24,000 bases of DNA from Peterkaempfera bronchialis (GTDB lineage: Bacteria > Actinomycetota > Actinomycetes > Streptomycetales > Streptomycetaceae). Positions within the stretch are counted from its first letter, which is position 1, and every line of letters begins with the position of its first letter. The DNA lies in contig NZ_CP031264.1 in NCBI RefSeq assembly GCF_003258605.2, positions 5,858,232-5,882,231 of the forward strand, read 5' to 3'. The notes under the pieces were generated by a model. It worked only from the letters and a program-made list of their open reading frames with translations, was not told the origin of the DNA and did not search any database. A program made the translations under genes and the position numbers. Positions 5,138 to 17,803 of the stretch are shown here, one piece after another.

Positions 5138-6022
5138 TCAGCGCGGCCCGCCCCCGTCGGTACGGGCCTCGATGGCGTGCAGCACCGCCACCATGTCGGA
5201 CCCGCCGTACCCCAACGCCACGGTCTCGCCGAAGAGGGCGTGGCAGACATCCAGCAGCGGCGATGCCAGGTCGGACGCCCTGGCGGCCTCGGCGATCAGC
5301 CGGTTGTTCTTGAGGACGTCCAGGGCGGCGGCCTGGACGGCGAAGTCGCGGGTCAGCAGCTTGGGGGCCTTCATTCGGGACACGCTGCTCGCCATCGGGC
5401 CGGCGTCGAGCACCGCCAGGAACTGCTGCCGGTCCAGGCCGTGCCGATCGGCGAAGTGGAACGCCTCGGTGAGGCCGGTGACCATGGTGATCAGAAACAG
5501 GTTCACCGAGAGCTTCATCAGCAGCGCGCTCGGGACCGGTCCGCAGCCGAACGCCTCCCGGCACATCGGCCGGAGCAGCGGGCGGACCGCCTCCACCGCC
5601 GTCTGCGCTCCGGCCAGCATCGCCACCAGCTGTCCGGCCTCCGCGGGCTTGCGCGAGCCGGAGACGGGAGCCTCGACATAGCTGCCGCCGGCCGCGTGGA
5701 TGTCGGCTTCGAGCCCGCGTGAGTAGTCGGGCGAGGTCGTCCCCATGTGGACGATCGTGTGCTGTGCGACCAGGGCGGCGAAGTCCGGTGTGCCACGGCC
5801 CAGGGCGGAGTCGATCGCGGCGCCGTCGGCCAGCATGAGGATCACGACGCGGGCCTGCTTGAAGACCTCGGCGGGAGTCGCCGCCACCGTGGCACCGGCC
5901 GCACGCAGCGGCTCGCACTTGGCGGCGGTGCGGTTCCAGACGACCAGCGCAGTCCCGGACCGGGCCAGATTGAGGGCCATGGGCTGCCCCATGACGCCAA
6001 GGCCCAGGAAACCCACATCCAC
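5138..6022 (-). CDS. NAD(P)-dependent beta-hydroxyacid dehydrogenase (3-hydroxyisobutyrate / 6-phosphogluconate dehydrogenase-like family)
   Basis: The N-terminal Rossmann motif is [19 protein letters not shown], and the family motif VEAPVSGS is present further in. The GTG 6022 start has agaggg upstream. ATG 6061 is an alternative start but lies inside the predicted operator. Confidence 0.8.
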
Positions 6023-6046
6023 TGCGCACCGCCCTCTGCTCTGGTC

Positions 6047-6062
6047 TATGACGCTCGTCATA
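6047..6062. promoter_or_regulatory. Palindromic operator candidate 1 (TATGACG-CT-CGTCATA)
   Basis: This is a perfect 7+7 inverted repeat in the AT-richer divergent region between the dehydrogenase and the TetR gene. Confidence 0.5.
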
Positions 6063-6073
6063 ATAGTGATCCC

Positions 6074-6089
6074 CATGACGGCCGTCATA
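6074..6089. promoter_or_regulatory. Palindromic operator candidate 2 (cATGACG-GC-CGTCATa)
   Basis: The core ATGACGGCCGTCAT is a perfect 14-bp palindrome with the same half-site as candidate 1. The two centres are 27 bp apart. Confidence 0.5.
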
Positions 6090-6176
6090 GTGGGTCTGTG
6101 TGCGTCGTCTATAAGCTGGCCCGGCCTGCGGGGGAGACGACCGTTCCCCCGCCCGTCAGTCGGTTGGAGGTCGGCG

Positions 6177-6818
6177 ATGGCGGTTTCCGAGCGGGGGCCG
6201 CGCGAGCGGATGGTGTTCAGCGCGGCGCAGCTCATCCGGCGCGACGGGGTCGCCGCGACGGGCATGCGTGATGTCGTCGCCCATGCGCAGGCGCCGCGCG
6301 GATCGCTCCAGCACTACTTCCCCGGCGGCAAGGAGCAGCTTGTCAACGAGGCCGTGGACTGGGCCGGCCGCTATGCCGCCAAGCGCGTCGGCCGCTTCCT
6401 CGCCGAGCTGTCCGAGCCGTCCGAGCTGTCCGAGCTGTCCGAGCTGTCCGAGCCGTCCGAGCCGTCGCCGAGCGGGCTCTTCGCCGCGATGGTGCGGCAG
6501 TGGACCGATGAGTTCGAGGCGGTCGGGTTCGCGTCGGGTTGCCCTGTTGCGGCGGCGACGGTGGATTGCGCGGAGTCCACCGCCTCCACCAGAGCCGCTG
6601 CCGCAGCCGCGTTCGCCCGCTGGAACCGGCCGGTGGCCGAGGCGCTGAGGGAGATGGGCGTCCCGGCCCAGCGGGCCGACGCGCTCGCGACGCTGATGAT
6701 CAGCGCATTGGAGGGAGCGATCCTGATCGCCAGATCCGAGCAGGACGTCCGCGCCCTCACCACCGTGGCACGGGAACTCGGGCCCCTCCTGGACGGCGCT
6801 GTCACCCGAGGGGACTGA
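6177..6818 (+). CDS. TetR-family transcriptional regulator
   Basis: ATG 6177 is preceded by ggagg 6 nt upstream. The N-terminal HTH is [45 protein letters not shown]. It is divergent from the dehydrogenase. Confidence 0.85.
6402..6473 (+). repeat. In-frame 9-bp tandem repeat (TCCGAGCYG, 6 clean units plus degenerate flanks) inside the TetR gene
   Basis: It encodes [24 protein letters not shown], read directly from the sequence. Confidence 0.85.
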
Positions 6819-6859
6819 CGCGGCAGGCGGGGCCCGCCGTGCGGCGGAGGCGTACGGCC

Positions 6860-9172
6860 TCAGCCGCTGATCCGCAGGGCTGCCACCCCGTCCGGCGTGC
6901 CCGCCACCAGCTGCGCGTCCCCGGACAGGACCAGTGCCGTGACGGGGCAGCCGAGCCGCAGGTCCAGCTCGGTACCGACGTCGTCCAGCCGACGCACCCG
7001 CAGCAGCCCGTCCGCCCAGGCGGCGGCCACCACCAACCCCCGGTCGATAGCGACGGCGGCCACGGCGGTCACCGGGCAGGGGCGGGCGTCCCACGGTTCG
7101 GGCATCGGGTCGGCGCCGGGTCCCCAGAGCCGTACGCAGCCGTCCAGGCCACCGCTGACCAGCAGCGGCACACCCTGGCCGACCGGCGCGTCGGCCGGCA
7201 GGGCGACGCCCGAGAGTGCGGTGACCGGTCCCCGGTGGAGCCGGTGCCGCTCCTCCCGCCAGTGCACCCGACCCTCCACGTCGCCCACTGCGGGCGGCTC
7301 GCTCGGCAGCCCGGCGAGACAGGCCACCGCGCTCAGCTCGGCGGCGGCCCGCTGCCGCAGCAGATCCAGGGCCGCTGTCAGGTGGTACGGCTCCAGACCG
7401 GCCGGTACACCCGAGCCGGCGGCGGCGGCGGGGGCGGCGGTGGCGGTGGCGGGGGCGGCGGCGTCGAAGGCGGCCTGGATACGCGCCCCCACCTGGGCAC
7501 CCTGGTCGGCGGGGGCCAGCACCTCGGGCACGCCCCAGACGTCCAGCAGGACGACGCTGCCGCCCGGAGCGCAGGCCAGCGACCGCAGCGGCCTGGGCTC
7601 GGGGACGGCGATCCGTCCGGTCGGGTGACCGTCGGCCGCCGACAGGATGCGGACGGCGCCCGTCGGGTCGGCCAGCAGCAGCTGCCCGGCGTACGGGCCG
7701 GTGCCCGCCGCTGCGGCGGCCACCGGGCCCGGCCAGCGACCGGCCGAGCCCGCAGCGGGACGCCACTGCGCCCATTGCGCCTGCCACCCCGCGCCGGCGG
7801 CCGTCGGGGCCAGTCGCTCGGCGGCCGTGTCGTCGCGGCCCAGCAGCCGGGTCCGCAGTACGGCGGCTCGTACGGCCGGGTCGTCCTGCTCGACCAGCGC
7901 GGGCCCGGCGGCGTGCCAGGCGGCGGCGAGGGCGGCGTTCGGGGTACCGGCCTCCAGGGCGGCGGTCACCGCCACCGGGTGGGCGTGCACCAGGAAGGCC
8001 GGGTCGGAGAGCAGTTCGCCGGAGTTGCCCGCGAGCAGGGTGTGGGTGAGCAGCAGGGACAGCCGGTCGGGGTCGGCCGAGGGCAGGTCGGGGCCTCCGC
8101 CGTCGGCCCGGGGCACCGTCCGGGCCAGGGACCGCACCGCTGCGGTGTGGTCCGGTTCGGTGGCCGCGACCACGGAGGGCAGCGGCAGCGGACGCAGCCA
8201 CCAGCCATCGGCGGCGGGGGTGGCCGCCGGGAGCCATCGGGCGGCCTCCCGGACCGCTTCGGCCTCGCCGTACAGGGCGGTCCAGGCGTCCAGGCCGATG
8301 GGGCGGTCCACTGCCGCCAGCGCCGCGACGGCGGCCCTGGCGTTCTCCGGCACCGCCGCCCACCACGCCCGGCAGACGGCCTCCGCCTCCGCGCCGCCCG
8401 CCGCCGTGCCCGCAGTCTCTGCGCCGACCGCCCCCGCCGCTGCCTCCGCGTCAACCGCCTTCGCGCTCGCCGCTGCCTCTGCGCCGACCGCCCCCGCCGC
8501 CGCGTCGCCCGCACTGGACGGGGCCTGCGGGGTGCGGGCGGCGAGCAGGGCCAGGCCGGGGTTGGGGTACACCTGGTCCGCCGTGAAGGCGGAGTGGCCC
8601 CGGGTCGACGCGGCGTACCAGGCGGCGAACCGCTCGCGGTCCGTCCACTGCGGATCGTCCAGGTCCAGCACCGCCGGGTCGGCGACGGCGGTGAAGGCGT
8701 CGGCCAGGGCGGAGCCGGTCGCGGCGTCGACGACCATGCGCAGGTGGGGGAGGGCGAGCAGCGGGTCCAGCAGTTCGGAGACCAGGCGCTGCGGCTCGTC
8801 GGGCAGCCCGGGGCCGCCCGCCAGGTGCAGGTCGGCGACGCAGACCACGGTGGTGCGGGCGTCCTGCTCCAGCGCGGCGACCAGATCGCCGGGCGTACGG
8901 GCGGGGACGTTCAGCTGGGCGGCCATCAGCCAGGTGGCGCTCCGCACCGTGAGACCGGCGGCGGGCAGCAGCGAGTGGACGCGCTGCGTGTGCGGCGTGG
9001 CCGGGTCGGTGCAGGCGGCGGCCAGCCATGCCAGCAGGTGGGTGCGGCCGCTGCCCGGCGAACCCGTGACCCGGCAGAGCCGAGGCGCCCGGTCGTCCTG
9101 CCGCCAGCCCAGCAGTGCCCGTCCGGCGGGCCGCCGTCCTGCCCGTAGCGGTGGTATCCGGCGCTCTTCCAC
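6860..9172 (-). CDS. P-loop NTPase (STAND/NACHT-like) with C-terminal WD40-type repeats; Walker A Lys replaced by Arg
   Basis: GTG 9172 has gggaggagag 6 nt upstream and lies 23 nt after the upstream stop. Walker A is GSPGSGRT and Walker B-like is TTVVCVADL. The C-terminal WD-like blades are LLVSGGLDGCVRLWGP, AAAWADGLLRVRRL, LVAGTPDGVAALRI and LLADPTGAVRIL. The track ORF N-terminus (9173-9556) overlaps the upstream gene and was discarded. Confidence 0.75.
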   Translation of the reverse strand: MEERRIPPLRAGRRPAGRALLGWRQDDRAPRLCRVTGSPGSGRTHLLAWLAAACTDPATPHTQRVHSLLPAAGLTVRSATWLMAAQLNVPARTPGDLVAALEQDARTTVVCVADLHLAGGPGLPDEPQRLVSELLDPLLALPHLRMVVDAATGSALADAFTAVADPAVLDLDDPQWTDRERFAAWYAASTRGHSAFTADQVYPNPGLALLAARTPQAPSSAGDAAAGAVGAEAAASAKAVDAEAAAGAVGAETAGTAAGGAEAEAVCRAWWAAVPENARAAVAALAAVDRPIGLDAWTALYGEAEAVREAARWLPAATPAADGWWLRPLPLPSVVAATEPDHTAAVRSLARTVPRADGGGPDLPSADPDRLSLLLTHTLLAGNSGELLSDPAFLVHAHPVAVTAALEAGTPNAALAAAWHAAGPALVEQDDPAVRAAVLRTRLLGRDDTAAERLAPTAAGAGWQAQWAQWRPAAGSAGRWPGPVAAAAAGTGPYAGQLLLADPTGAVRILSAADGHPTGRIAVPEPRPLRSLACAPGGSVVLLDVWGVPEVLAPADQGAQVGARIQAAFDAAAPATATAAPAAAAGSGVPAGLEPYHLTAALDLLRQRAAAELSAVACLAGLPSEPPAVGDVEGRVHWREERHRLHRGPVTALSGVALPADAPVGQGVPLLVSGGLDGCVRLWGPGADPMPEPWDARPCPVTAVAAVAIDRGLVVAAAWADGLLRVRRLDDVGTELDLRLGCPVTALVLSGDAQLVAGTPDGVAALRISG
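8417..8500. repeat. 60-bp-period in-frame tandem duplication inside the NTPase-WD40 gene
   Basis: The identical 24-mer ctctgcgccgaccgcccccgccgc occurs at 8417-8440 and 8477-8500. It encodes a duplicated AAGAVGAE... Ala-rich segment. Confidence 0.75.
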
Positions 9173-9975: not shown

Positions 9976-10038
9976 ATGCTGAGCCCTTCACTGTCGTCGG
10001 CGGCAGGAGCCGACAATACCGGACCGTATGCGGGCGGT

Positions 10039-10578
10039 TCAGTACAGGAACGAATCGAAGTACTCGCTCCACAGTCCGTCCGGCTGGGCAAACGCGATGG
10101 AATCCCTGGTGCCGACCTCATTGCGGACGGATTCCTCGGCCCGGGAGAGATCCTCCTGGTCCGGGTCCTCGCCCGGAATCTCGCGGGCGATGAGGAGAAG
10201 GGTGTAGGCAAAGGCGGAGACATCCGCGTTCACCGGCTCGTACAACTCCTCGGCACCCGGCGAGACATAGACGACCCCGGTGTCCCGGTCGATGTAGACG
10301 CCGGCGTCGCGGACCGAGATATAGCCGATTTTCAGGAGATCCCGGTCCTCCCAGGCGTCGAGCTCCACCTCGTCCTCGGGCTCGATCGCGCCCCCCGGTG
10401 CCCCGGGGTTCGCGGCGGCGACCGCCGAGGTCATCAGGAAGAGACCGGAGCAGTGGGGGATGCCCGTCTCCCAGAGGAAGCGCGCCGTCTCCTGGTGGTG
10501 GACCAGGTCGGCGATCTTCTGCTCGTCAGCCCTCAGCAGGTCCCCGGTGGAGGACGCCGGGTCGATGTCGAAGAGCAC
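10039..10578 (-). CDS. SUKH-4 (SMI1/KNR4 superfamily) immunity protein, cognate to the upstream deaminase toxin
   Basis: GTG 10578 lies 17 nt after the toxin stop, with gggcgggag upstream. Motifs are ETARFLWETGIP, LLKIGYISVRDAGVYIDRDTGVVYV, EPVNADVSAFAYTLLLI and IAFAQPDGLWSEYF. The remainder of track ORF 10039..11733 is a junk extension. Confidence 0.7.
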   Translation of the reverse strand: MLFDIDPASSTGDLLRADEQKIADLVHHQETARFLWETGIPHCSGLFLMTSAVAAANPGAPGGAIEPEDEVELDAWEDRDLLKIGYISVRDAGVYIDRDTGVVYVSPGAEELYEPVNADVSAFAYTLLLIAREIPGEDPDQEDLSRAEESVRNEVGTRDSIAFAQPDGLWSEYFDSFLY

Positions 10579-10595
10579 GTGGGGACTCCCGCCCG

Positions 10596-11711
10596 CTAGT
10601 CGAAGTTCGTGGTGCCCGCGGTGCCGCGGTGGTTTCCGCCCGCATGGTCGGAAACCAGCTGGTCCATATACCTCTGGAACGGCGCATTGCGCAGACCCTT
10701 GTCTTTGACCGAGCTGTCGTACTGTACACCATGGGTGACGTCGAGATTGGGGTTGTGATCGGGGTCCTGCACGTACATGTAAAGCCACCGTTCGCATGTT
10801 GAACCGCTTTGGCACGGCCTTCGCTCGGTATACAGACCATCGATCCCGTGCTCCTGGCCACCCTTTACGAGCGGGTATCCGATCGAGCGCTCCGAGTGGT
10901 TTCTCTTGTTGCTGCTGCGGCCTACCAGTATGTAATCCTTGCCGTCCTCGCCGACATATCGGAGCGACGCGTAGTTGTTGCCCTTGCTGTAGTCCTGCTT
11001 GGCCCTTCTGACGTTCTCCACCGCGAGCGAGAGGTCCGACGGCTCGGTGAGGCGCCGGGACTGCACCACATCGGGATCGTCGTTGCCGACGCGCTTCCGG
11101 GTCCGCTGGTTGGTGGAGTAGGCCTGCTTCTCCTTCGCGGTCGGGTCGTTGACCTTGCCGTTCGAGGTCACCGAGTCGAGGTGGGTGCCCGTCGTACCGG
11201 TCACCTGCGAGAGCTTTCCGTTCTTCAGCTGGTGCACCTGGCCGTCGTCGTCCACGAAGAAGGTCGGGGTGTGCCCGCCGCCCCCTCCCTGCCCGCCGCC
11301 GTTGCCGGACCCGCCGTTCCCGGACCCGCCGTTCCCGGACCCGCCGCTTCCGGAGCCCTCGCCGCCGCCGTGTCCGATCCCGCGCGTGTCGTGCTGCCGG
11401 TCGAGGCTGTCGAGCTCGGTCCGGTGGTGCTGGTCGGTCTGCTTGGTGTTGCGGTGGTGCTGCTTGACCCGGTCGGCGATGCTGTCGAGGTGGCCGGTGA
11501 CCTTCCCCAGGCCGTCGTCGAGGACGTCCTCGACCCGCTCGATGGCGCCGACCAGGTGGCCGAAGGCACCTCCCTTGCCACCGCTTCGGCGGCGGCGGGC
11601 CGAGCCGGTCCGGAAGTGCGTGTGGCGGTCCCTGGCCTTCTGGCTGGTGGCCTTGAACCCCGAGTGCGCGTTCTCGAAGTCGGCGTCGTCCAGCTCCATC
11701 ATGTCGCTCAT
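10596..11711 (-). CDS. Polymorphic-toxin effector: helical N-region, Gly/Ser/Asn linker, C-terminal SCP1.201/DddA-family nucleic-acid deaminase domain
   Basis: The C-terminus reads NHSERSIGYPL...GLYTERRPCQSGSTCERW, that is HxE then PCx5C about 25 residues later, the signature of zinc deaminases. The ATG overlaps the upstream stop (ATGA), with GGGAGGGA 9 nt upstream. Confidence 0.8.
   Translation of the reverse strand: MSDMMELDDADFENAHSGFKATSQKARDRHTHFRTGSARRRRSGGKGGAFGHLVGAIERVEDVLDDGLGKVTGHLDSIADRVKQHHRNTKQTDQHHRTELDSLDRQHDTRGIGHGGGEGSGSGGSGNGGSGNGGSGNGGGQGGGGGHTPTFFVDDDGQVHQLKNGKLSQVTGTTGTHLDSVTSNGKVNDPTAKEKQAYSTNQRTRKRVGNDDPDVVQSRRLTEPSDLSLAVENVRRAKQDYSKGNNYASLRYVGEDGKDYILVGRSSNKRNHSERSIGYPLVKGGQEHGIDGLYTERRPCQSGSTCERWLYMYVQDPDHNPNLDVTHGVQYDSSVKDKGLRNAPFQRYMDQLVSDHAGGNHRGTAGTTNFD
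11296..11355. repeat. 15-bp in-frame tandem repeat x4 encoding (GSGNG)n linker in the toxin
   Basis: The units are ccgccgttgccggac / ccgccgttcccggac / ccgccgttcccggac / ccgccgcttccggag, read directly from the sequence. Confidence 0.85.
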
Positions 11712-12373
11712 ATGCCGAGTCCCTCCCGCACACCGGTCGTACCGGCGTTCAGACCGCTGTCGAGTGCCTTGCCCAGGTCCGGGACGTCGCCGTCACCCAG
11801 GTAGCTGTTGAGTCCGTCGGTGGCGAGCTGCACCACGATGCCCTCGATCACCGAGACCACCGCGTCCTCGACCATGCCGGTGGCGTAGTCGATCAGCTGC
11901 TGCTCCAGCTCGCGCAGCAGCCGGCGGCAGATCTCCCGGCAGACCGTGGTCTCGGCCAGCGCCGCCGCCTCCGAGAGCCCGAAGGTGAAGGCCGCGGCCG
12001 CCGTCGCGGCGGCGATCGAGGCGGCCAGGATGCCCAGCTGGACGACGACCGCGCCCTTGGCTATCTCCACGGCCACCGCCGCCCCGTCCAGCACCGTGCC
12101 CATCACCCGCAGGGCGTCGGCGAAGTCCTGGAGGTGCCCCTTGGAGGTCTTCTCCCAGGCGGCGGCGAACGCCTCGATCGCCTCACCTTTGCTGGACCCC
12201 GCAGTGAGGTGGTACGACGCCTGCGTCCCCGCCACCCGCAGGTCCTCCAGGTGGTCCGCCATCGCCCGGTAGTCGTCGGCCGAGGCCCGCAGCTCGTCCT
12301 CGTCCACATCGGGCCAGTCGATGCCGATCACGTCCAGGAGCCACACCAGCTCGCTCGGCAGCATCACGGACAT
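11708..12373 (-). CDS. WXG100-like / T7SS-associated N-terminal trafficking-domain protein encoded as a stand-alone gene
   Basis: The N-terminus MSVMLPSELVWLLDVIGIDWPDVDEDELRASADDYRAMA matches the LPxxL..lG..WPxxDED opening that I recall from N-termini of actinobacterial polymorphic toxins. It is followed by helices and a hydrophobic stretch AVVVQLGILAASIAAATAAAAFTF. No enzymatic domain is present. Confidence 0.6.
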   Translation of the reverse strand: MSVMLPSELVWLLDVIGIDWPDVDEDELRASADDYRAMADHLEDLRVAGTQASYHLTAGSSKGEAIEAFAAAWEKTSKGHLQDFADALRVMGTVLDGAAVAVEIAKGAVVVQLGILAASIAAATAAAAFTFGLSEAAALAETTVCREICRRLLRELEQQLIDYATGMVEDAVVSVIEGIVVQLATDGLNSYLGDGDVPDLGKALDSGLNAGTTGVREGLGI

Positions 12374-12832
12374 GCGCTCCCACCCCCGTACTCGCCCACC
12401 TGATGTCCAGTCAAACTATCGCGTATCCCACCCGCTTTCACGTGCACATGCCGGATCCGGTTTCCCCCGGGCCCTGTCCTGCCCGCCCATGCCGGGAAGG
12501 GAGTGGCGTCGGTGCCGGGGCTGGTGGGGTTGTGCTGTTCGACGGGGGCGTGAATTCGGGCTTTTCGGGGGCGGATGTGACGTGGGTTATATGGCGTGGG
12601 TCACATATGGGGCGGTTTGGCATGGTCTGCGGTGTGATCTGGGCAATATGACCTGCCTCACTATGGGCTCGCGTAGTGGATATTTGGGGCGTTCCGGTGC
12701 TGTTCGGGGCGGGTGCGGGGTGCTGGAGCCTGCTGGGTGTACGAGGCGCCTTAGTAAGAAGTGGTGATTGACCTGAGGTTTGAGCGCCGTCAACACTCGC
12801 TGATATCCCCCGACGGAAGAGGTAATTCCCGT
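12374..12832. promoter_or_regulatory. 459-bp divergent intergenic region (toxin operon <-> SLT gene), lower GC and G-tract-rich
   Basis: No ORF here has coding-like composition. It contains the inverted repeat atgtgac-N18-gtcacat (12575-12606), the direct repeat gtgctgttcg (12532 and 12697) and several GGGG tracts. Confidence 0.4.
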
Positions 12833-13312
12833 ATGCAGTTCTCCGCGATGTCCAAGTTCGGTCACCTGGTCAAGGCCAAGAGGATTTCCGTGGGCGTCGG
12901 CGCAGCCGGCGTCGCCGTTCTGGCCGGTGTTGTCGGCGCTTCGCCGGCCTCCGCTGCCACCGCCTCCAGCGCCTCCGCCGCCTCCGCCCGCAGCGGCAGT
13001 GTCGACGGCTGGATCAAGCAGTCGCTGTCCGTCATGCACAAGCACGGCATACCCGGCAGCTACAACGGCATCTACCGCAACCTGATGCGCGAATCCAGCG
13101 GAAACCCGATGGCCATCAACAACTGGGACTCGAACGCGAGGGCCGGCATCCCGTCGAAGGGGCTGCTCCAGGTCATCGAGCCGACCTTCAAGGCGTACCA
13201 CGTCAAGGGCACGTCCTGGGACATCTACAACCCGGTCGCGAACATCACCGCCGCCTGCAACTACGCGGCCCATGTCTACGGCTCGATCGACAATGTGAAC
13301 TCGGCTTACTGA
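12833..13312 (+). CDS. Secreted lytic transglycosylase (SLT/GEWL-like domain)
   Basis: The signal peptide is MQFSAMSKFGHLVKAKRISVGVGAAGVAVLAGVVGASPASA. The core is LMRESSGNPMAINNWDSNARAGIPSKGLLQVIEPTF, containing the ES..N catalytic Glu motif and the GLMQ-like GLLQV. ATG 12848 is an alternative start. Confidence 0.8.
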   Translation: MQFSAMSKFGHLVKAKRISVGVGAAGVAVLAGVVGASPASAATASSASAASARSGSVDGWIKQSLSVMHKHGIPGSYNGIYRNLMRESSGNPMAINNWDSNARAGIPSKGLLQVIEPTFKAYHVKGTSWDIYNPVANITAACNYAAHVYGSIDNVNSAY

Positions 13313-13330
13313 GTGTGAGCGACGGGCCTG

Positions 13331-13371
13331 CTGCGGACGCGGCCGATCCACCGGATCGGCCGCGTCCGCAG
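13331..13371 (+). terminator. Rho-independent-type terminator hairpin after the SLT gene
   Basis: ctgcggacgcggccgatcc (13331-13349) pairs perfectly with ggatcggccgcgtccgcag (13353-13371), giving a 19-bp stem followed by ttgctt. Confidence 0.75.
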
Positions 13372-13451
13372 TTGCTTCGCATGCGCGCGGTGCCTGCGAT
13401 TCGGGAATACTGGTCCCTATCAGCAAGCCGCGCACAAGGAGATGGTCACTG

Positions 13452-13556
13452 ATGACCTCCCATCCTCACTCCGCTTCGGCGGTCACGGGCGCCATCGTGC
13501 TGACCCTGACGGTGGCCGCGATGCTGGCCCTGGTGGCGATCCTGCTCTCGACCTGA
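13452..13556 (+). CDS. Small hydrophobic peptide, 34 aa (MTSHPHSASAVTGAIVLTLTVAAMLALVAILLST); below the ORF-track length cutoff
   Basis: AAGGAG (13436-13441) lies 10 nt upstream of ATG 13452. By hand count about 29 of the 32 codons between Met1 and the stop, leaving out the internal ATG, end in G or C. The peptide has one predicted TM helix. The stop is TGA 13554-13556. Confidence 0.5.
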   Translation: MTSHPHSASAVTGAIVLTLTVAAMLALVAILLST

Positions 13557-13834
13557 CGCCGACCCGTCCCGACCTGCGCGGACGCGGTCGGCGGAGCCCG
13601 CTCGGCGGTGGTCCGATTGGCGTAGCGGGACCGCCAGGGTGAGACTGGGATGCGTGAGGCATGTTCGAAGCATGCGTGCACCCGTCCCCGGTCGAACCGG
13701 AACCAGTACAGTCCGAAACCCAGCACAGCACGGACGGGTGTGACCGGCCCCAGCTACGCAAAGGCCGCCGTGCGGCCGATCCGACCGGGTCCTCCCCGAG
13801 TGCCCGGCAGCGCATCCCACCGGGACCGGTGCAA

Positions 13835-13848
13835 CTTCCCATGGGAAG
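13835..13848. promoter_or_regulatory. Perfect 14-bp palindrome CTTCCCATGGGAAG overlapping the rppA ribosome-binding site
   Basis: Read directly from the sequence. It ends 12 nt before the rppA ATG, and GGAAGGG at 13844-13850 is the likely SD. Confidence 0.35.
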
Positions 13849-13860
13849 GGCTCCAGTCAG

Positions 13861-14907
13861 ATGCCGACCCTTTGCCGTCCTGCCGTAGCGGTTCCCGAAC
13901 ACACCATCTCCATGGCGGAGACGCTTGCCCTGGCCCGCCGGCTGCACGCCGCGCACCCGCAACTCGGCCTGGTCCTGAGGCTCATCGAGAACACGGGTGT
14001 GCGTGAGCGCCATCTCGTACGCCCCATCGCCGAGACGCTGATCCACCCGGGCTTTGAAGCGCGCAACGCGGTCTATGAAGAGGAGGCCAAGGCGCGCGTC
14101 CCCGAGGTGGTCCGGACGGCGCTGGGCAGTGCCGACATCGGCAGCCGGGACATCGACGCGATCTTCTTTGTCTCCTGCACCGGGTTTCTGATGCCCTCGT
14201 TGACCGCGTGGATGATCAACAATCTCGGGTTCCGCAATGACACACGGCAGATCCCCATCGCCCAGCTGGGCTGTGCGGCGGGCGGCGCCGCGATCAACCG
14301 GGCGTGCGACTTCTGCCTCGCGTATCCGGAAGCCAACGCCCTGATCGTCGCCTGCGAGTTCTGCTCGCTCTGCTATCAACCCACCGACACCGGTGTGGGA
14401 TCGCTGCTGTCGAACGGGCTCTTCGGCGACGCGGTGGCTGCCGCAGTGGTCAGAGGCGACGGCGGCGTCGGAGTCCGGCTGGAGCGGAACAGCTCCTACC
14501 TGGTGCCCGACACCGAGGAGTGGATCTGCTACGCGGTCAAGGCGACCGGTTTTCACTTCCAGCTGGACAAGCGGGTGCCCACCACGATGGCGATGCTCGC
14601 TCCGGCCCTGCACACCCTGGCGGCCAGCCACGGCTGGGATGCCTCGGCGCTCGACTTCTACATCATCCATGCGGGCGGCCCCCGGATCCTCGAAGACCTC
14701 CGCCAGATCCTGGGCGTCGAGGCATCGGCCTTCCGGCACAGCAGGGGGACGCTCACCGACTACGGGAACATCGCCAGCGCCGTGGTGCTGGACTCGCTGC
14801 GCCGCATGTTCGACGAGGATTCCCTCCCCGACCGGGCCCAGGGGGTGATCGCCGGGTTCGGCCCCGGGATCACCGCCGAGACCTGCGTGGGGACATGGTC
14901 GGCGTGA
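13861..14907 (+). CDS. rppA: Type III polyketide synthase, 1,3,6,8-tetrahydroxynaphthalene synthase
   Basis: MPTLCRPAVAVPEH...FVSCTGFLMPSL (catalytic Cys)...IIHAGGPRIL (His)...YGNIASAVV (Asn)...GFGPGITAE. From memory this is near-colinear with S. griseus and S. coelicolor RppA. Confidence 0.95.
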   Translation: MPTLCRPAVAVPEHTISMAETLALARRLHAAHPQLGLVLRLIENTGVRERHLVRPIAETLIHPGFEARNAVYEEEAKARVPEVVRTALGSADIGSRDIDAIFFVSCTGFLMPSLTAWMINNLGFRNDTRQIPIAQLGCAAGGAAINRACDFCLAYPEANALIVACEFCSLCYQPTDTGVGSLLSNGLFGDAVAAAVVRGDGGVGVRLERNSSYLVPDTEEWICYAVKATGFHFQLDKRVPTTMAMLAPALHTLAASHGWDASALDFYIIHAGGPRILEDLRQILGVEASAFRHSRGTLTDYGNIASAVVLDSLRRMFDEDSLPDRAQGVIAGFGPGITAETCVGTWSA

Positions 14908-14958
14908 CCGAAGACCAGACGACAACCCCCGTGCTGGGGCTGGGAAGAGGAGCACACA

Positions 14959-16161
14959 GTGGCGACCGAGACCCGCGTATGGGACTGCCCCTTCAACCAC
15001 AACCAGGCGCTTGAATTCGACCCGCTGCTCAAGCAGTTGCTCACCGAGGCGCCCATCGCCCGCATCAGCATGCCCCATGGCGACGGCCACGCCTGGCTGG
15101 TGACCCGGTACGAGGACGTCTCCACCGTGGTCACGGACCAGAGGTTCAGCCGCGCCGCCGGTATCGGGCGAGACCTGCCGAGGATGACGCCCGAGCCGAT
15201 CGCCCAGAGCGAGGCGATCAACCTGATGGACCCGCCGGCGCACACCCGGCTCCGCAAGCTGGTGGCCAAGGGGTTCACCCCCGCCCAGGTCGAGCAGATG
15301 GAGCCCAAGGTGCACGCCATCGTGGACCGTCTGCTGGACGAGATGGCCGCGCAGCCGGCTCCGGTCGACTTCACCCGGCACTTCGCGTCACGGCTGCCGA
15401 TCACCACCATCTGCGAGGTCCTGGCCATACCCGAGGCCGACCAGCCGCGCATCCGGCAACTCGCGATGGCGATGATGTCCACCTCCTCGGGGCGGCAGGC
15501 GACGCGCGAGGCCAAGGCCGAGCTGCGGGCGTACTTCCTGGACCTGTCGGCCCGCCGCAGGGAGCAGCCCGGTGAGGACCTGATCAGCGCGCTGGCCATG
15601 GCCCGGGACGGGGACGAACTGCTCGACCCGACGGAGCTGGCCGTTATGGCCATGGTGCTCACGGTCACCGGGCATGACACCAGCACCTACCAGCTCAGCA
15701 ACATCCTCTACACCCTGCTCACCCACCCCGAGCAGCTGGCACTGCTGCGCTCCCGTCCCGAGCTGCTGAACCAGGCGGTCGAGGAGCTGCTGCGGTTCAT
15801 CCCGTTCCGCCATGGAGTCGGCATCGCCCGGGTCGCCACGGAGGACGTGGAACTCGGCGGGGTGACGATCCGGGCAGGCGAGGTCGTGCATGTCTCCTAC
15901 CTCACCGCCAACCACGACCCCGAGGTGTTCGAGCGGCCGGACGAGCTGGACATCGAGCGTCCCCCCGCGATGCATATGACGTTCGGTCACGGCACGCACT
16001 ACTGCATCGGCGCCAACCTGGCCCGCGCGGAGCTGCGCATCGCCTTCGCATCGCTGCTCCAGCGCTTCCCCGAGCTGCACCTCGCCGTCCCCGCCGAACA
16101 GGTCCCGTGGCACATCGGCTCCATCTGGCGCTACCCCGAGGAGCTGCCCATCGCGTGGTAG
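14959..16161 (+). CDS. Cytochrome P450, CYP158A/P450mel-like (flaviolin/THN biaryl-coupling type by context)
   Basis: GTG 14959 has ggaagaggag upstream. The I-helix is AMVLTVTGHDTS, the ExxR motif is EELLRF and the heme loop is FGHGTHYCIGANLAR. It lies immediately downstream of rppA, as in known rppA loci. Confidence 0.9.
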   Translation: MATETRVWDCPFNHNQALEFDPLLKQLLTEAPIARISMPHGDGHAWLVTRYEDVSTVVTDQRFSRAAGIGRDLPRMTPEPIAQSEAINLMDPPAHTRLRKLVAKGFTPAQVEQMEPKVHAIVDRLLDEMAAQPAPVDFTRHFASRLPITTICEVLAIPEADQPRIRQLAMAMMSTSSGRQATREAKAELRAYFLDLSARRREQPGEDLISALAMARDGDELLDPTELAVMAMVLTVTGHDTSTYQLSNILYTLLTHPEQLALLRSRPELLNQAVEELLRFIPFRHGVGIARVATEDVELGGVTIRAGEVVHVSYLTANHDPEVFERPDELDIERPPAMHMTFGHGTHYCIGANLARAELRIAFASLLQRFPELHLAVPAEQVPWHIGSIWRYPEELPIAW

Positions 16162-16216
16162 CCCCGCAGCCCTCCCGTCGGTATCCCGTCACCGGTCCAG
16201 CAGGGGTTCGCTCAGC

Positions 16217-17803
16217 ATGGAAGACCTTCATCGTGATGCATCCGGCCTCCCGGCCGACACCCGGGGGCGGCTGGCGGAACTCAATGACACCAAGCGGCGG
16301 GCGCGTTGCGGCCCGAGCGGTCGGGCGACCGAGGTGCAGCATGCCAAGGGGAAGCTGACGGCTCGGGAGCGGATCGCGCTGCTGCTGGACGAGGGTTCGT
16401 TCAGCGAGGTGGAGCCGCTGCGGCGGCATCGGGCGTCCGGTTTCGGGCTGGAGGCCAACAAGCCCTACACCGATGGTGTGGTGACCGGGTGGGGGACGGT
16501 GTACGGGCGGACGGTGGTGGTCTATGCCCATGACTTCCGGATCTTCGGTGGTGCGCTGGGTGAGGCCCATGCGCAGAAGATCCACAAGATCATGGACATG
16601 GCCATCTCGGTGGGGGCGCCGCTGGTCTCGCTGAACGACGGCGCGGGTGCCCGGATCCAGGAGGGCGTGACCGCCCTCGCCGGTTACGGCGGCATCTTCC
16701 AGCGCAACAGCCGGGCGTCGGGGGTGATCCCGCAGATCTCGGTGATGCTCGGCCCGTGCGCGGGCGGTGCGGCGTACTCGCCGGCGCTGACCGACTTCGT
16801 CTTCATGGTCCGCGAGACCTCGCAGATGTTCATCACCGGCCCGGATGTGGTCAAGGCGGTCACCGGCGAGGACACCTCCCATGACGGGCTGGGTGGCGCG
16901 GATGTGCACGCGGAGCTGTCCGGGGTGGCGCACTTCGCCTACGACGACGAGCAGACCTGCCTGGAGGAGGTCCGCTATCTGCTCTCGCTCCTCCCGCAGA
17001 ACAACCGCGAGACACCCCCGGCGGTGCCGGCCGACGACCCGGCCGACCGGCGCTGCGAGGCGCTGCTGGACCTGGTCCCCGCCGACCCGGGCCGCTCCTA
17101 TGACATGCGCAAGGTGATCGAGGAACTGGTCGACGACGGCCAGTACATGGAGGTCCACGAGCGCTGGGCCACCAACGTCATCGTCGCGCTGGCCCGCCTG
17201 GACGGGCGGGTCGTCGGCCTGGTCGCCAACCAGCCGCAGTCCCTCGCCGGGGTGCTGGACATCGAGGCATCCGAGAAGGCCGCCCGCTTTGTGCAGCTGT
17301 GCGACGCCTTTGACATCCCGCTGCTCACCCTGCTGGACGTGCCCGGCTTCCTGCCCGGCGTCGACCAGGAGCACGGCGGCATCATCCGGCACGGCGCCAA
17401 GCTGCTCTACGCGTACTGCAACGCCACCGTGCCGCGCATCCAGCTGATCCTGCGCAAGGCGTACGGCGGCGCCTATATCGTGATGGACTCCCGCTCCGTC
17501 GGTGCCGACCTCTCCTACGCCTGGCCCACCAATGAGATCGCCGTGATGGGCGCCGAGGGCGCCGCCAACGTCATCTTCCGCCGGGAACTCGCCGCCGCCG
17601 ACGACCCCGAGGCCATGCGGATCCGCATGGTCAAGGAGTACAAGTCCGAGCTGATGCACCCCTACTACGCCGCCGAACGCGGCCTGGTGGACGACGTCAT
17701 CGACCCCGCCGACACCCGGGCGGTCCTCATCCGCGCCCTCGCCATGCTGCGCACCAAGGACGCGGCCCTGCCGCACCGCAAGCACGGCAACCCGCCGCAG
17801 TGA
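16217..17803 (+). CDS. Acyl-CoA carboxylase carboxyltransferase (beta) subunit, AccB-like
   Basis: QHAKGKLTARERIALLLDEGSF, NDGAGARIQEG, GPCAGGAAYSPALTDF and VPGFLPGVDQEHGGIIRHGAKLLYA are colinear with Streptomyces PccB/AccB. Ile at codon 421 (KAYGGAYIVMDS) is AccB-type. Confidence 0.9.
   Translation: MEDLHRDASGLPADTRGRLAELNDTKRRARCGPSGRATEVQHAKGKLTARERIALLLDEGSFSEVEPLRRHRASGFGLEANKPYTDGVVTGWGTVYGRTVVVYAHDFRIFGGALGEAHAQKIHKIMDMAISVGAPLVSLNDGAGARIQEGVTALAGYGGIFQRNSRASGVIPQISVMLGPCAGGAAYSPALTDFVFMVRETSQMFITGPDVVKAVTGEDTSHDGLGGADVHAELSGVAHFAYDDEQTCLEEVRYLLSLLPQNNRETPPAVPADDPADRRCEALLDLVPADPGRSYDMRKVIEELVDDGQYMEVHERWATNVIVALARLDGRVVGLVANQPQSLAGVLDIEASEKAARFVQLCDAFDIPLLTLLDVPGFLPGVDQEHGGIIRHGAKLLYAYCNATVPRIQLILRKAYGGAYIVMDSRSVGADLSYAWPTNEIAVMGAEGAANVIFRRELAAADDPEAMRIRMVKEYKSELMHPYYAAERGLVDDVIDPADTRAVLIRALAMLRTKDAALPHRKHGNPPQ

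Follow-up and report, generated by a model that had tools for sequence, protein, structure and literature searches.

The window analysed here is a stretch of 24,000 nucleotides (nt) from the genome of Peterkaempfera bronchialis (contig NZ_CP031264.1), and this study concerns the last of five co-directional genes which fill positions 12373-6860 on its minus strand (Table 1). The first three genes encode a WXG100_2 protein, a toxin with an XOO_2897 deaminase domain, and a SUKH-4 immunity protein, which together constitute a type VII polymorphic toxin cassette. They are followed by a gene in which a SUKH-4 domain is fused to an XOO_2897 deaminase domain (hereafter the fusion) and by the target gene, which is an unlisted extra member of the cassette. 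Judging from its predicted structure, the target product is a cytoplasmic Apaf-1/NLR-like STAND-class NTPase composed of an NTPase domain, a helical/winged-helix arm, and one WD40 propeller (hereafter STAND-WD40). Its sequence matched, with 100% identity and coverage, a public 770-amino-acid (aa) 'hypothetical protein' of Peterkaempfera bronchialis, and its nearest relative showed 62% identity over the full length.

The initial annotation of this DNA had placed the start of the gene 23 nt after the fusion gene, behind a strong Shine-Dalgarno sequence, and had quoted three peptide motifs without stating the strand. The positions of the Shine-Dalgarno sequence GGGAGGAG and of the GTG start codon agreed with this description, the gap of 23 nt being counted from the TAG stop codon of the fusion gene (9198-9196), and all three peptides were located in a single minus-strand frame (GSPGSGRT at 9064-9041, VVCVADL at 8848-8828, and LLVSGGLDGCVRLWGP at 7165-7118). 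The G+C contents at the first, second, and third codon positions (GC1, ca. 0.85; GC2, ca. 0.6; GC3, ca. 0.9), read on the minus strand across 6860-9172, were those of a minus-strand gene, and the reading frame was intact with a GC3 of ca. 0.9 throughout. Since the window is GC-rich (0.64-0.80), long open reading frames (ORFs) occur in every frame; the codon-position composition of the plus-strand ORFs overlapping the target gene did not fit, and the plus-strand ORF at 6539-9148, whose translation is Arg/Gly-rich nonsense, was rejected. Within the window, the G+C content peaks in the STAND-WD40 gene (0.78-0.80 at 7000-9000) and drops to 0.64-0.70 across the toxin, immunity, and SLT genes (10000-14000); the cassette is compositionally mixed.

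The association of the fusion with STAND-WD40 was evaluated in 73 homologue loci, one genome per species, which were found with a 12-sequence alignment and searched with the window proteins. A fusion homologue was present in 42 loci. In 33 of these it was located directly upstream on the same strand and ended 28-167 nt before the STAND-WD40 gene; in 8 Kitasatospora loci, where the WXG100_2 and STAND-WD40 genes diverge, it lay 2.6-3.5 kb away on the opposite strand; and locus L064 contained only a partial copy, nearby on the same strand. When the comparison was started from the fusion, a 483- to 694-aa gene with faint AAA_16/WD40 similarity was found immediately downstream in six of six loci, and the stop and start codons of the two genes overlapped by 4 nt in three of them (L075, L078, and L079). 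XOO_2897 toxin and SUKH-4 genes were nearby in all six, which had six different flanking contexts, some of them with transposase or DUF2637 genes close to the cassette. Adjacency was thus conserved in both search directions, and the coupling of the two genes proposed in the initial annotation is not a peculiarity of this genome.

WXG100_2 homologues were found in 40 and toxin homologues in 41 of the 73 loci, nearly all of them fusion-bearing loci. The initial annotation had described the pair as lying directly downstream of a toxin cassette. This is accurate for the window, in which the toxin genes precede the pair; however, the pair is itself part of the cassette, since the WXG100_2 protein and XOO_2897 toxin accompany it in 40-41 of the 42 fusion-bearing loci and in several gene orders. 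The order in Streptomyces and Embleya is fusion, STAND-WD40, WXG100_2, toxin, and SUKH-4; the toxin genes come first in the window, in most Kitasatospora loci, and in Streptacidiphilus. The fusion-STAND pair remains adjacent through these rearrangements relative to the toxin genes. In the closest relative, Peterkaempfera sp. SMS 1(5)a (L001), the fusion and STAND-WD40 genes are intact, the WXG100_2 gene is absent, and the toxin and SUKH-4 genes are present only as fragments (5960-7190 of that locus). After the fusion in S. dangxiongensis (L074, 7918-9604), the STAND-WD40 gene is split into 430-aa and 122-aa ORFs and is probably a frameshifted copy or a pseudogene.

The initial annotation had read the target as a STAND/NLR-like NTPase-WD40 protein with an Ala-rich region and at least four WD-like blades, and this reading was borne out. 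An AlphaFold2 model based on an alignment of 37 sequences had a predicted local distance difference test (pLDDT) value of 89.5 and a predicted template modelling (TM) score of 0.89, and a separate model of residues 1-465 had a pLDDT of 90.1. The first model contained an alpha/beta NTPase domain, high-confidence arm helices, and a propeller of ca. 6-7 blades. The NTPase domain is joined to the arm by an Ala-rich linker (AAAGAVGAE...; residues ca. 215-265) which is variable or absent in orthologues; Ala accounts for 23% of the whole protein. When the full-length model was searched with Foldseek, ranks 1-5 were full-length Apaf-1 and apoptosome chains (E = 4.6e-14, 931 aligned columns), and WD40 propellers (G-beta, COPI, and PkwA; E of ca. 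1e-8) followed at lower ranks. Residues 1-465 gave the STAND-TPR structure 6mfv (E = 3.7e-5, TM-score 0.46) and Apaf-1 (E = 2.8e-4, TM-score 0.49) over ca. 520 columns and, further down, NRC, NLRP, and NAIP structures, Dark, and generic AAA+ proteins. For the arm, these matches are evidence at the level of the fold. The N-terminal part, therefore, does have a predicted NTPase fold of the STAND/AAA+ type. No strongly hydrophobic segment was found in the target or fusion proteins, and the target carries no effector domain of its own.

Sequence profiles led to the same class by another route. A Pfam scan of the single protein gave nothing above the cut-off (WD40, 17.6 bits against a cut-off of 27; AAA_22, 13.6 bits), and no scan reported a match to Pfam NB-ARC. 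Among the relatives, NACHT, NPHP3_N, and AAA_16 matches were mostly just below the threshold, with one above it (NPHP3_N in protein P0012), and WD40 was above or near the cut-off (27.5 bits in P0002). Compared with the sequences in PDB, the family profile matched WD40 structures (Ika8, E = 2e-26; PkwA, E = 1.3e-15; RACK1, E of ca. 1e-10); the profile of residues 1-465 gave only P-loop-level matches (E of ca. 0.4), which are uninformative. When 1.8 billion representatives were searched exhaustively with the profile, 1232 relatives were obtained at E <= 1e-3. The relatives scanned beyond the immediate family (E of 1e-20 to 1e-28) largely combined Peptidase_C14 with AAA_16/NACHT/nSTAND1 and WD40; several of these caspase-type proteins are 1300-1700 aa long. 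The Pfam matches carried by relatives in this E range were AAA_16, NACHT, nSTAND1, or NPHP3_N. Based on the predicted fold and the profile homology together, the target was assigned to the STAND class, an assignment which holds at the level of the class rather than of a clade within it.

The Walker A motif of the target, GSPGSGRT, keeps the glycines and the Thr and has Arg in place of Lys. This Arg was not a one-base slip, since its codon, CGC, is at least two substitutions from AAG; a sequencing or point error was rejected on account of this codon and of the recurrence of the change in the family. Among 115 alignable family members, position 43 was Lys in 65, Arg in 49, and Ser in 1, and G37, G40, and G42 were invariant. 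The Walker B acidic site was D or E in 94 of the 115 (VVCVAD in the target), and the residue two positions past it was D in 75 and His in the target (D116 to H). On a neighbour-joining tree, Lys was inferred to be ancestral, with ca. 10 independent changes at the Walker A position, among which Lys-to-Arg was recurrent, and one clade of ca. 40 clusters stably keeps GSSGSGRT. The nearest relative has GPSGTGST, with Ser at the Lys position. Since the Arg is accompanied by the His two residues past the Walker B Asp, the target copy probably binds nucleotide and hydrolyses it poorly or not at all, and may act as a binding switch or scaffold. The initial annotation had drawn a similar conclusion from the Arg; the substitution is real, and altered or absent hydrolysis can fairly be inferred for the target copy and a large paralogous clade, but it is not a feature of the system, since ca. 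37 of the 42 fusion-linked orthologues retain the Lys. The fusion-bearing loci with Arg are that of the window and four Kitasatospora loci of divergent arrangement.

The fusion partner appears to be under selection as an enzyme. The motif H-[PA]-E-E ... E-L-[EQ]-[PA]-C-x-x-P-G-H-[YW]-C was invariant in 36 fusion sequences, so the His, Glu, and two Cys of the deaminase, i.e., its zinc-binding and catalytic residues, are kept in all of them. This invariance indicates that the zinc ligands and catalytic Glu are under selection, and the fusion deaminase looks catalytically intact and active; the possibility that it is an inactive decoy was rejected on the invariance of its H-x-E and PC...C residues. 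In a comparison of the window with the 12 loci that passed gene calling, the fusion evolved most slowly among the cassette members (mean pairwise distance of 0.50), followed by STAND-WD40 (0.56), WXG100_2 (0.58), and toxin (0.66). The fusion deaminase domain shares 23% identity with that of the neighbouring toxin, and the fusion SUKH-4 domain shares 37% identity over 63 residues with the stand-alone immunity protein; with such low values, the fusion is not a recent duplicate of its neighbours. The fusion family comprises at least 282 clusters, and among the matches listed, 120 of 120 had the two-domain architecture.

Table 1. Genes, protein regions, and signals of the five-gene operon in the window
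Feature	Position	Strand	Remarks
STAND NTPase-helical-WD40 gene (target)	6860..9172	minus	770 aa; GTG 9172-9170, stop 6862-6860
NTPase domain, residues 1-215	8528..9172	minus	alpha/beta fold in model; Walker A 9064-9041, Walker B VVCVAD 8848-8831
Ala-rich linker, 27-nt tandem repeat x4	8385..8500	minus	pLDDT 55-69, residues ca. 215-265
Helical arm, residues ca. 266-462	7787..8377	minus	winged-helix-like segment and helical domain; high-confidence helices
WD40-type beta-propeller, residues 463-770	6863..7786	minus	ca. 6-7 blades; disordered insert 557-610
Shine-Dalgarno sequence GGGAGGAG of target gene	9186-9179	minus	6 nt before GTG start
SUKH-4::XOO_2897-deaminase fusion gene, 259 aa	9196..9975	minus	Pfam SUKH-4 1.8e-13, XOO_2897-deam 2.5e-26
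Stand-alone SUKH-4 immunity gene, 179 aa	10039..10578	minus	GTG 10578; Pfam 2.4e-15
Toxin gene, 371 aa	10596..11711	minus	helical N-terminus, Gly-rich linker, XOO_2897 deaminase domain; Pfam 1.4e-10
WXG100_2 (type VII secretion-type) partner gene	11708..12373	minus	Pfam WXG100_2 3.4e-15, NCBIfam WXG100_ESAT6 6.5e-6

The window carries intact toxin, immunity, and fusion genes. The WXG100_2 and toxin genes overlap by 4 nt, as they do in L076 and L079, and 17 nt separate the toxin gene from the SUKH-4 gene. The WXG100_2 and toxin genes are likewise two genes in Kitasatospora and Streptacidiphilus, and in three Streptomyces loci (L075, L077, and L078) WXG100_2 and the XOO_2897 deaminase form one polypeptide of 508-600 aa. 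Residues 109-127 of the WXG100_2 protein (11999-12055) form a hydrophobic stretch, VVVQLGILAASIAAATAAA, with a Kyte-Doolittle value of 2.0 over 19 residues, which could be a membrane-associated helix. In the toxin gene, a 15-nt tandem repeat (11296-11354) encodes a GSGNG-type Gly-rich linker that joins the helical N-terminus to the deaminase domain.

The flanks of the operon are unrelated to it. On one side are a convergent TetR gene, a dehydrogenase gene, and a hydrolase gene; on the other are an SLT lytic transglycosylase gene, a group of type III polyketide synthase, cytochrome P450, and carboxyltransferase genes, and an ABC transporter. The polyketide synthase, P450, and carboxyltransferase genes stand in a row (13861-17800) and form a small biosynthetic group. 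The TetR gene (ca. 6180-6818, plus strand) carries a 9-nt tandem repeat (6403-6466; 7 copies, 94% matches) encoding 16 residues between its DNA-binding and ligand-binding domains, and its ORF as listed from 5745 is over-extended. Neither type VII secretion core genes nor phage genes were found within the window. Promoter and terminator scans of both operon ends gave no sites, the sigma-70 consensus being poorly suited to this GC-rich organism.

The STAND-WD40 family extends beyond the cassette. It comprises at least 125 clusters from Kitasatospora, Streptomyces, Streptacidiphilus, Embleya, Peterkaempfera, and Phaeacidiphilus. In the neighbourhoods of the Arg-type long paralogues there was no common partner: their neighbours included a LuxR-AAA_16 gene, AraC, one WXG100_2 gene, a weak SUKH-1 match, and a DinB/MDMPI gene. 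Of 39 long paralogues, 26 (among them P0047, P0053, P0065, and P0073) matched the NCBIfam family NF033532, 'type VII secretion system-associated protein', mostly through an N-terminal motif of ca. 47 residues and in three cases through a full C-terminal domain; the target itself had no NF033532 match. In two further proteins, P0299 and P0305, the NTPase-arm profile matched with E values of 3e-50 and 2e-43, and a C-terminal SUKH-4 domain (Pfam 1.3e-19 and 6.4e-26) replaces the WD40 propeller; these are stand-alone genes without a toxin nearby (L080:7001-9277). P0299, P0305, and a truncated relative, P0340, share an N-terminal motif, LPxEL...G..WPD, with the N-terminus of the WXG100_2 protein. 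The pairwise similarity is weak (E = 6e-4 and 3e-3 over ca. 20 residues), and Pfam calls no domain there. Two STAND-WD40 paralogues stand in tandem in L038 (8001-11730), and K. atroaurantiaca encodes two as well, P0004 and P0258, whose locus tags differ by two.

How might a STAND switch and an immunity-tethered deaminase work together? We propose, as a plausible reading which we stop a little short of calling probable, that the fusion and STAND-WD40 proteins form a split sensor-effector unit answering a signal from toxin traffic, in which the WD40 propeller senses, the NTPase switches, and the deaminase is engaged. The propeller would bind a protein ligand; upon ligand and nucleotide binding, the NTPase module would switch conformation or oligomerise, as in Apaf-1 and the bacterial caspase-STAND-WD40 proteins; and the assembled switch would then engage the fusion protein, freeing or positioning a deaminase which is assumed to be otherwise restrained in cis by its own SUKH-4 immunity-type domain. 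The upstream fusion gene would, in effect, take the place of the effector which related STAND proteins have at their own N-terminus. This reading was suggested by the fact that the target has no effector, while the equivalent 5' position is occupied by a gene for an immunity-tethered deaminase, which is often translationally coupled to it. The signal may come from a related toxin that enters the cell or reflect the condition of the toxin-immunity pair which the cell itself makes. Since the company of type VII-style toxin genes is near-obligate, SUKH-4 replaces WD40 in P0299 and P0305, and a type VII motif occurs in paralogues, the signal most likely concerns interbacterial toxin traffic, and phage is a less likely source.

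Several observations weigh against this reading. The Foldseek values for the NTPase arm are modest (E of 1e-4 to 1e-5, TM-scores of 0.46-0.49), and neither the NCBIfam nor the PADLOC scan recognised the target protein. The fusion is missing from 31 of the 73 loci, which shows that the family is not dedicated to this partner. Among the other copies, the ca. 590-aa Lys-type orthologues of Kitasatospora, which lack query residues ca. 226-347, have no toxin genes and keep to one chromosomal position, behind purS-purQ-purL and a DinB/MDMPI-like gene (L012, L016, L018, L020, L027, L037, L039, and L050 are copies at this site), and in four Streptomyces loci (L056, L059, L066, and L068) the STAND-WD40 copy comes after a gene of the GntR type. 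The place behind this GntR gene is taken in L077 by a complete cassette of fusion, STAND, and toxin genes. The homologue, fusion, and profile searches revealed no protein in which STAND and deaminase are fused but did return the STAND-SUKH-4 fusions. In the mirror-tree comparison of the 12 loci plus the window, all parts of the cassette co-varied alike (r of 0.80-0.87) and the fusion-STAND pair was not singled out; since all parts co-vary equally, joint inheritance by itself may account for some of the linkage, and this comparison does not tell it apart from joint function.

We considered whether STAND-WD40 instead serves as a type VII secretion accessory, acting in the export of the WXG100_2/deaminase toxin. 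It could recognise the substrate pair, remove SUKH-4 before export, or gate secretion, with the fusion as a second cytoplasmic antidote or buffer. The company of WXG100_2 and XOO_2897 toxin genes in 40-41 of 42 fusion-bearing loci, the NF033532 motif in the long paralogues with its three full C-terminal domains, and the WXG100_2-like motif of P0299, P0305, and P0340 all fit such a role. However, the pair is intact in L001, where the toxin and immunity genes have decayed, many family members reside in loci without any toxin, and the window contains no type VII core genes. Besides, the next-closest relatives are caspase-STAND-WD40 proteins and not secretion components, and the repeated loss of the Walker A Lys to Arg fits an energy-consuming unfoldase or chaperone poorly. 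A secretion role, although the main rival, thus seems rather unlikely to us. An independent Avs-like antiphage module, in which STAND-WD40 would sense a phage protein and unleash the deaminase on phage or host nucleic acid while merely sharing a mobile island with the toxin genes, is suggested by the STAND architecture with its repeat sensor, by the conserved two-gene core with overlapping stop and start codons in three cases, and by the varied genomic contexts of the cassette, sometimes near transposase or DUF2637 genes. Yet PADLOC returned no meaningful match for the target or the other four operon proteins, and nothing in the operon or around it points to phage. The pair is associated in several orders with one particular toxin/immunity family and not with assorted defence genes, and in Kitasatospora the divergence of the WD40 part exceeds that of the NTPase part only modestly (44-50% vs 52-62% identity). 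Consequently, we regard an antiphage module as improbable.

It is also conceivable that in this genome the target is a decaying or catalytically dead pseudo-NTPase, serving only as a scaffold or nearing loss. The two changes at the Walker motifs of the window copy (K to R and D116 to H), the Ser of its closest relative alongside a decayed toxin-immunity pair, and the split copy of S. dangxiongensis are what such decay would look like. Against this stand the intact frame with its uniform GC3, the full-length identity of 62% to the nearest relative together with a confidently predicted fold, and the intact toxin, immunity, and fusion genes of the window. Since the Arg is stable in a clade of ca. 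40 clusters and arose ca. 10 times, it is better taken as a tolerated or functional change than as decay, and we consider a dying gene very improbable. A further reading would make the five genes an 'effector-triggered' response to interbacterial toxins, in which the SUKH-4 domain of the fusion baits the XOO_2897 toxins of rivals, STAND-WD40 reads the event, and the cell's own deaminase answers. In proteins of the P0299/P0305 type, the SUKH-4 domain on the STAND protein itself would be the bait, and the deaminase response could amount to mutagenesis, a damage signal, or the sacrifice of a hyphal compartment. This reading is improbable; if it were true, an NLR-like guard would be wired to toxin warfare and not to phage.

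Bacterial STAND/NLR-type switches are known mainly as single-protein antiphage or cell-death devices, and polymorphic toxin cassettes are thought of as a toxin, an immunity gene, and spare modules. The widespread four- to five-gene unit of Streptomycetaceae described here, whose fusion alone numbers at least 282 protein clusters, ties the former to the latter and combines an effector-less NLR-like switch, an immunity-fused deaminase that looks intact, and a secreted toxin whose enzyme family is that of the deaminase. If the proposed mechanism is true, immunity domains would be reusable as regulators or baits, a genetically tractable STAND protein acting on a separate effector would be at hand, and the natural Lys/Arg variants at Walker A could reveal whether such switches depend on hydrolysis. 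For base editing, regulated deaminases of the cytoplasm are of practical interest as well.

The initial annotation had supposed that the pairing is not a described system, and this agrees with the literature searched. XOO_2897 deaminases have been listed with type VII, type VI, and type II secretion and SUKH4 immunity (Iyer et al. 2011, PMC3239186), and SUKH families have been described in which the SUKH domains are 'on occasions' fused to toxins (Zhang et al. 2011, 2012; PMC3113570, PMC3482391). The term WD40 is absent from these three papers, and where STAND NTPases come up in them, the context is a different one; neither a STAND partner of this toxin nor a SUKH-4::deaminase fusion as a conserved gene was found in PMC3239186 or PMC3482391. 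In the account of STAND-based conflict systems of multicellular bacteria by Kaur et al. 2020 (PMC7159879), the passages with deaminase or WD40 do not concern this pairing, and targeted full-text searches found nothing closer to it.

Among known systems, Apaf-1 and the apoptosome STAND proteins (AP-ATPase with WD40) share with the target the module order of P-loop NTPase, helical and winged-helix arm, and WD40 propeller. Unlike Apaf-1, however, the target has no CARD or other N-terminal adaptor, has one propeller and not two, shares only ca. 10% identity with it, and carries Arg in Walker A, and its presumed effector is a separate upstream gene. The Peptidase_C14-NACHT/nSTAND1-WD40 proteins of multicellular actinobacteria (PMC7159879) have a homologous NTPase and arm and WD40 sensors and occur in the same taxa as the target, but carry the effector in the same polypeptide and are 1300-1700 aa long with long double propellers. 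The fusion can be compared with CapRel, which also combines a neutralising and a toxic domain in one polypeptide and suggests release upon ligand binding, although its fold is unrelated and it needs no NTPase partner. In the Avs systems, effectors are fused N-terminally and the sensors recognise phage terminase or portal proteins. Avs follows the same logic as the target system, namely, a STAND NTPase with a C-terminal sensor and an effector attacking nucleic acid; the target differs in its separate effector, its toxin-cassette context, and its lack of a PADLOC match. Finally, the first three genes of the operon fit exactly the description of XOO_2897 toxins with SUKH-4 immunity (PMC3239186, PMC3482391), to which this operon adds a STAND partner and a conserved SUKH-4::deaminase fusion gene. 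Each part is, therefore, of a known kind, and what appears to be new, as judged from sequence, is the joining of a STAND conflict switch to a polymorphic toxin cassette.

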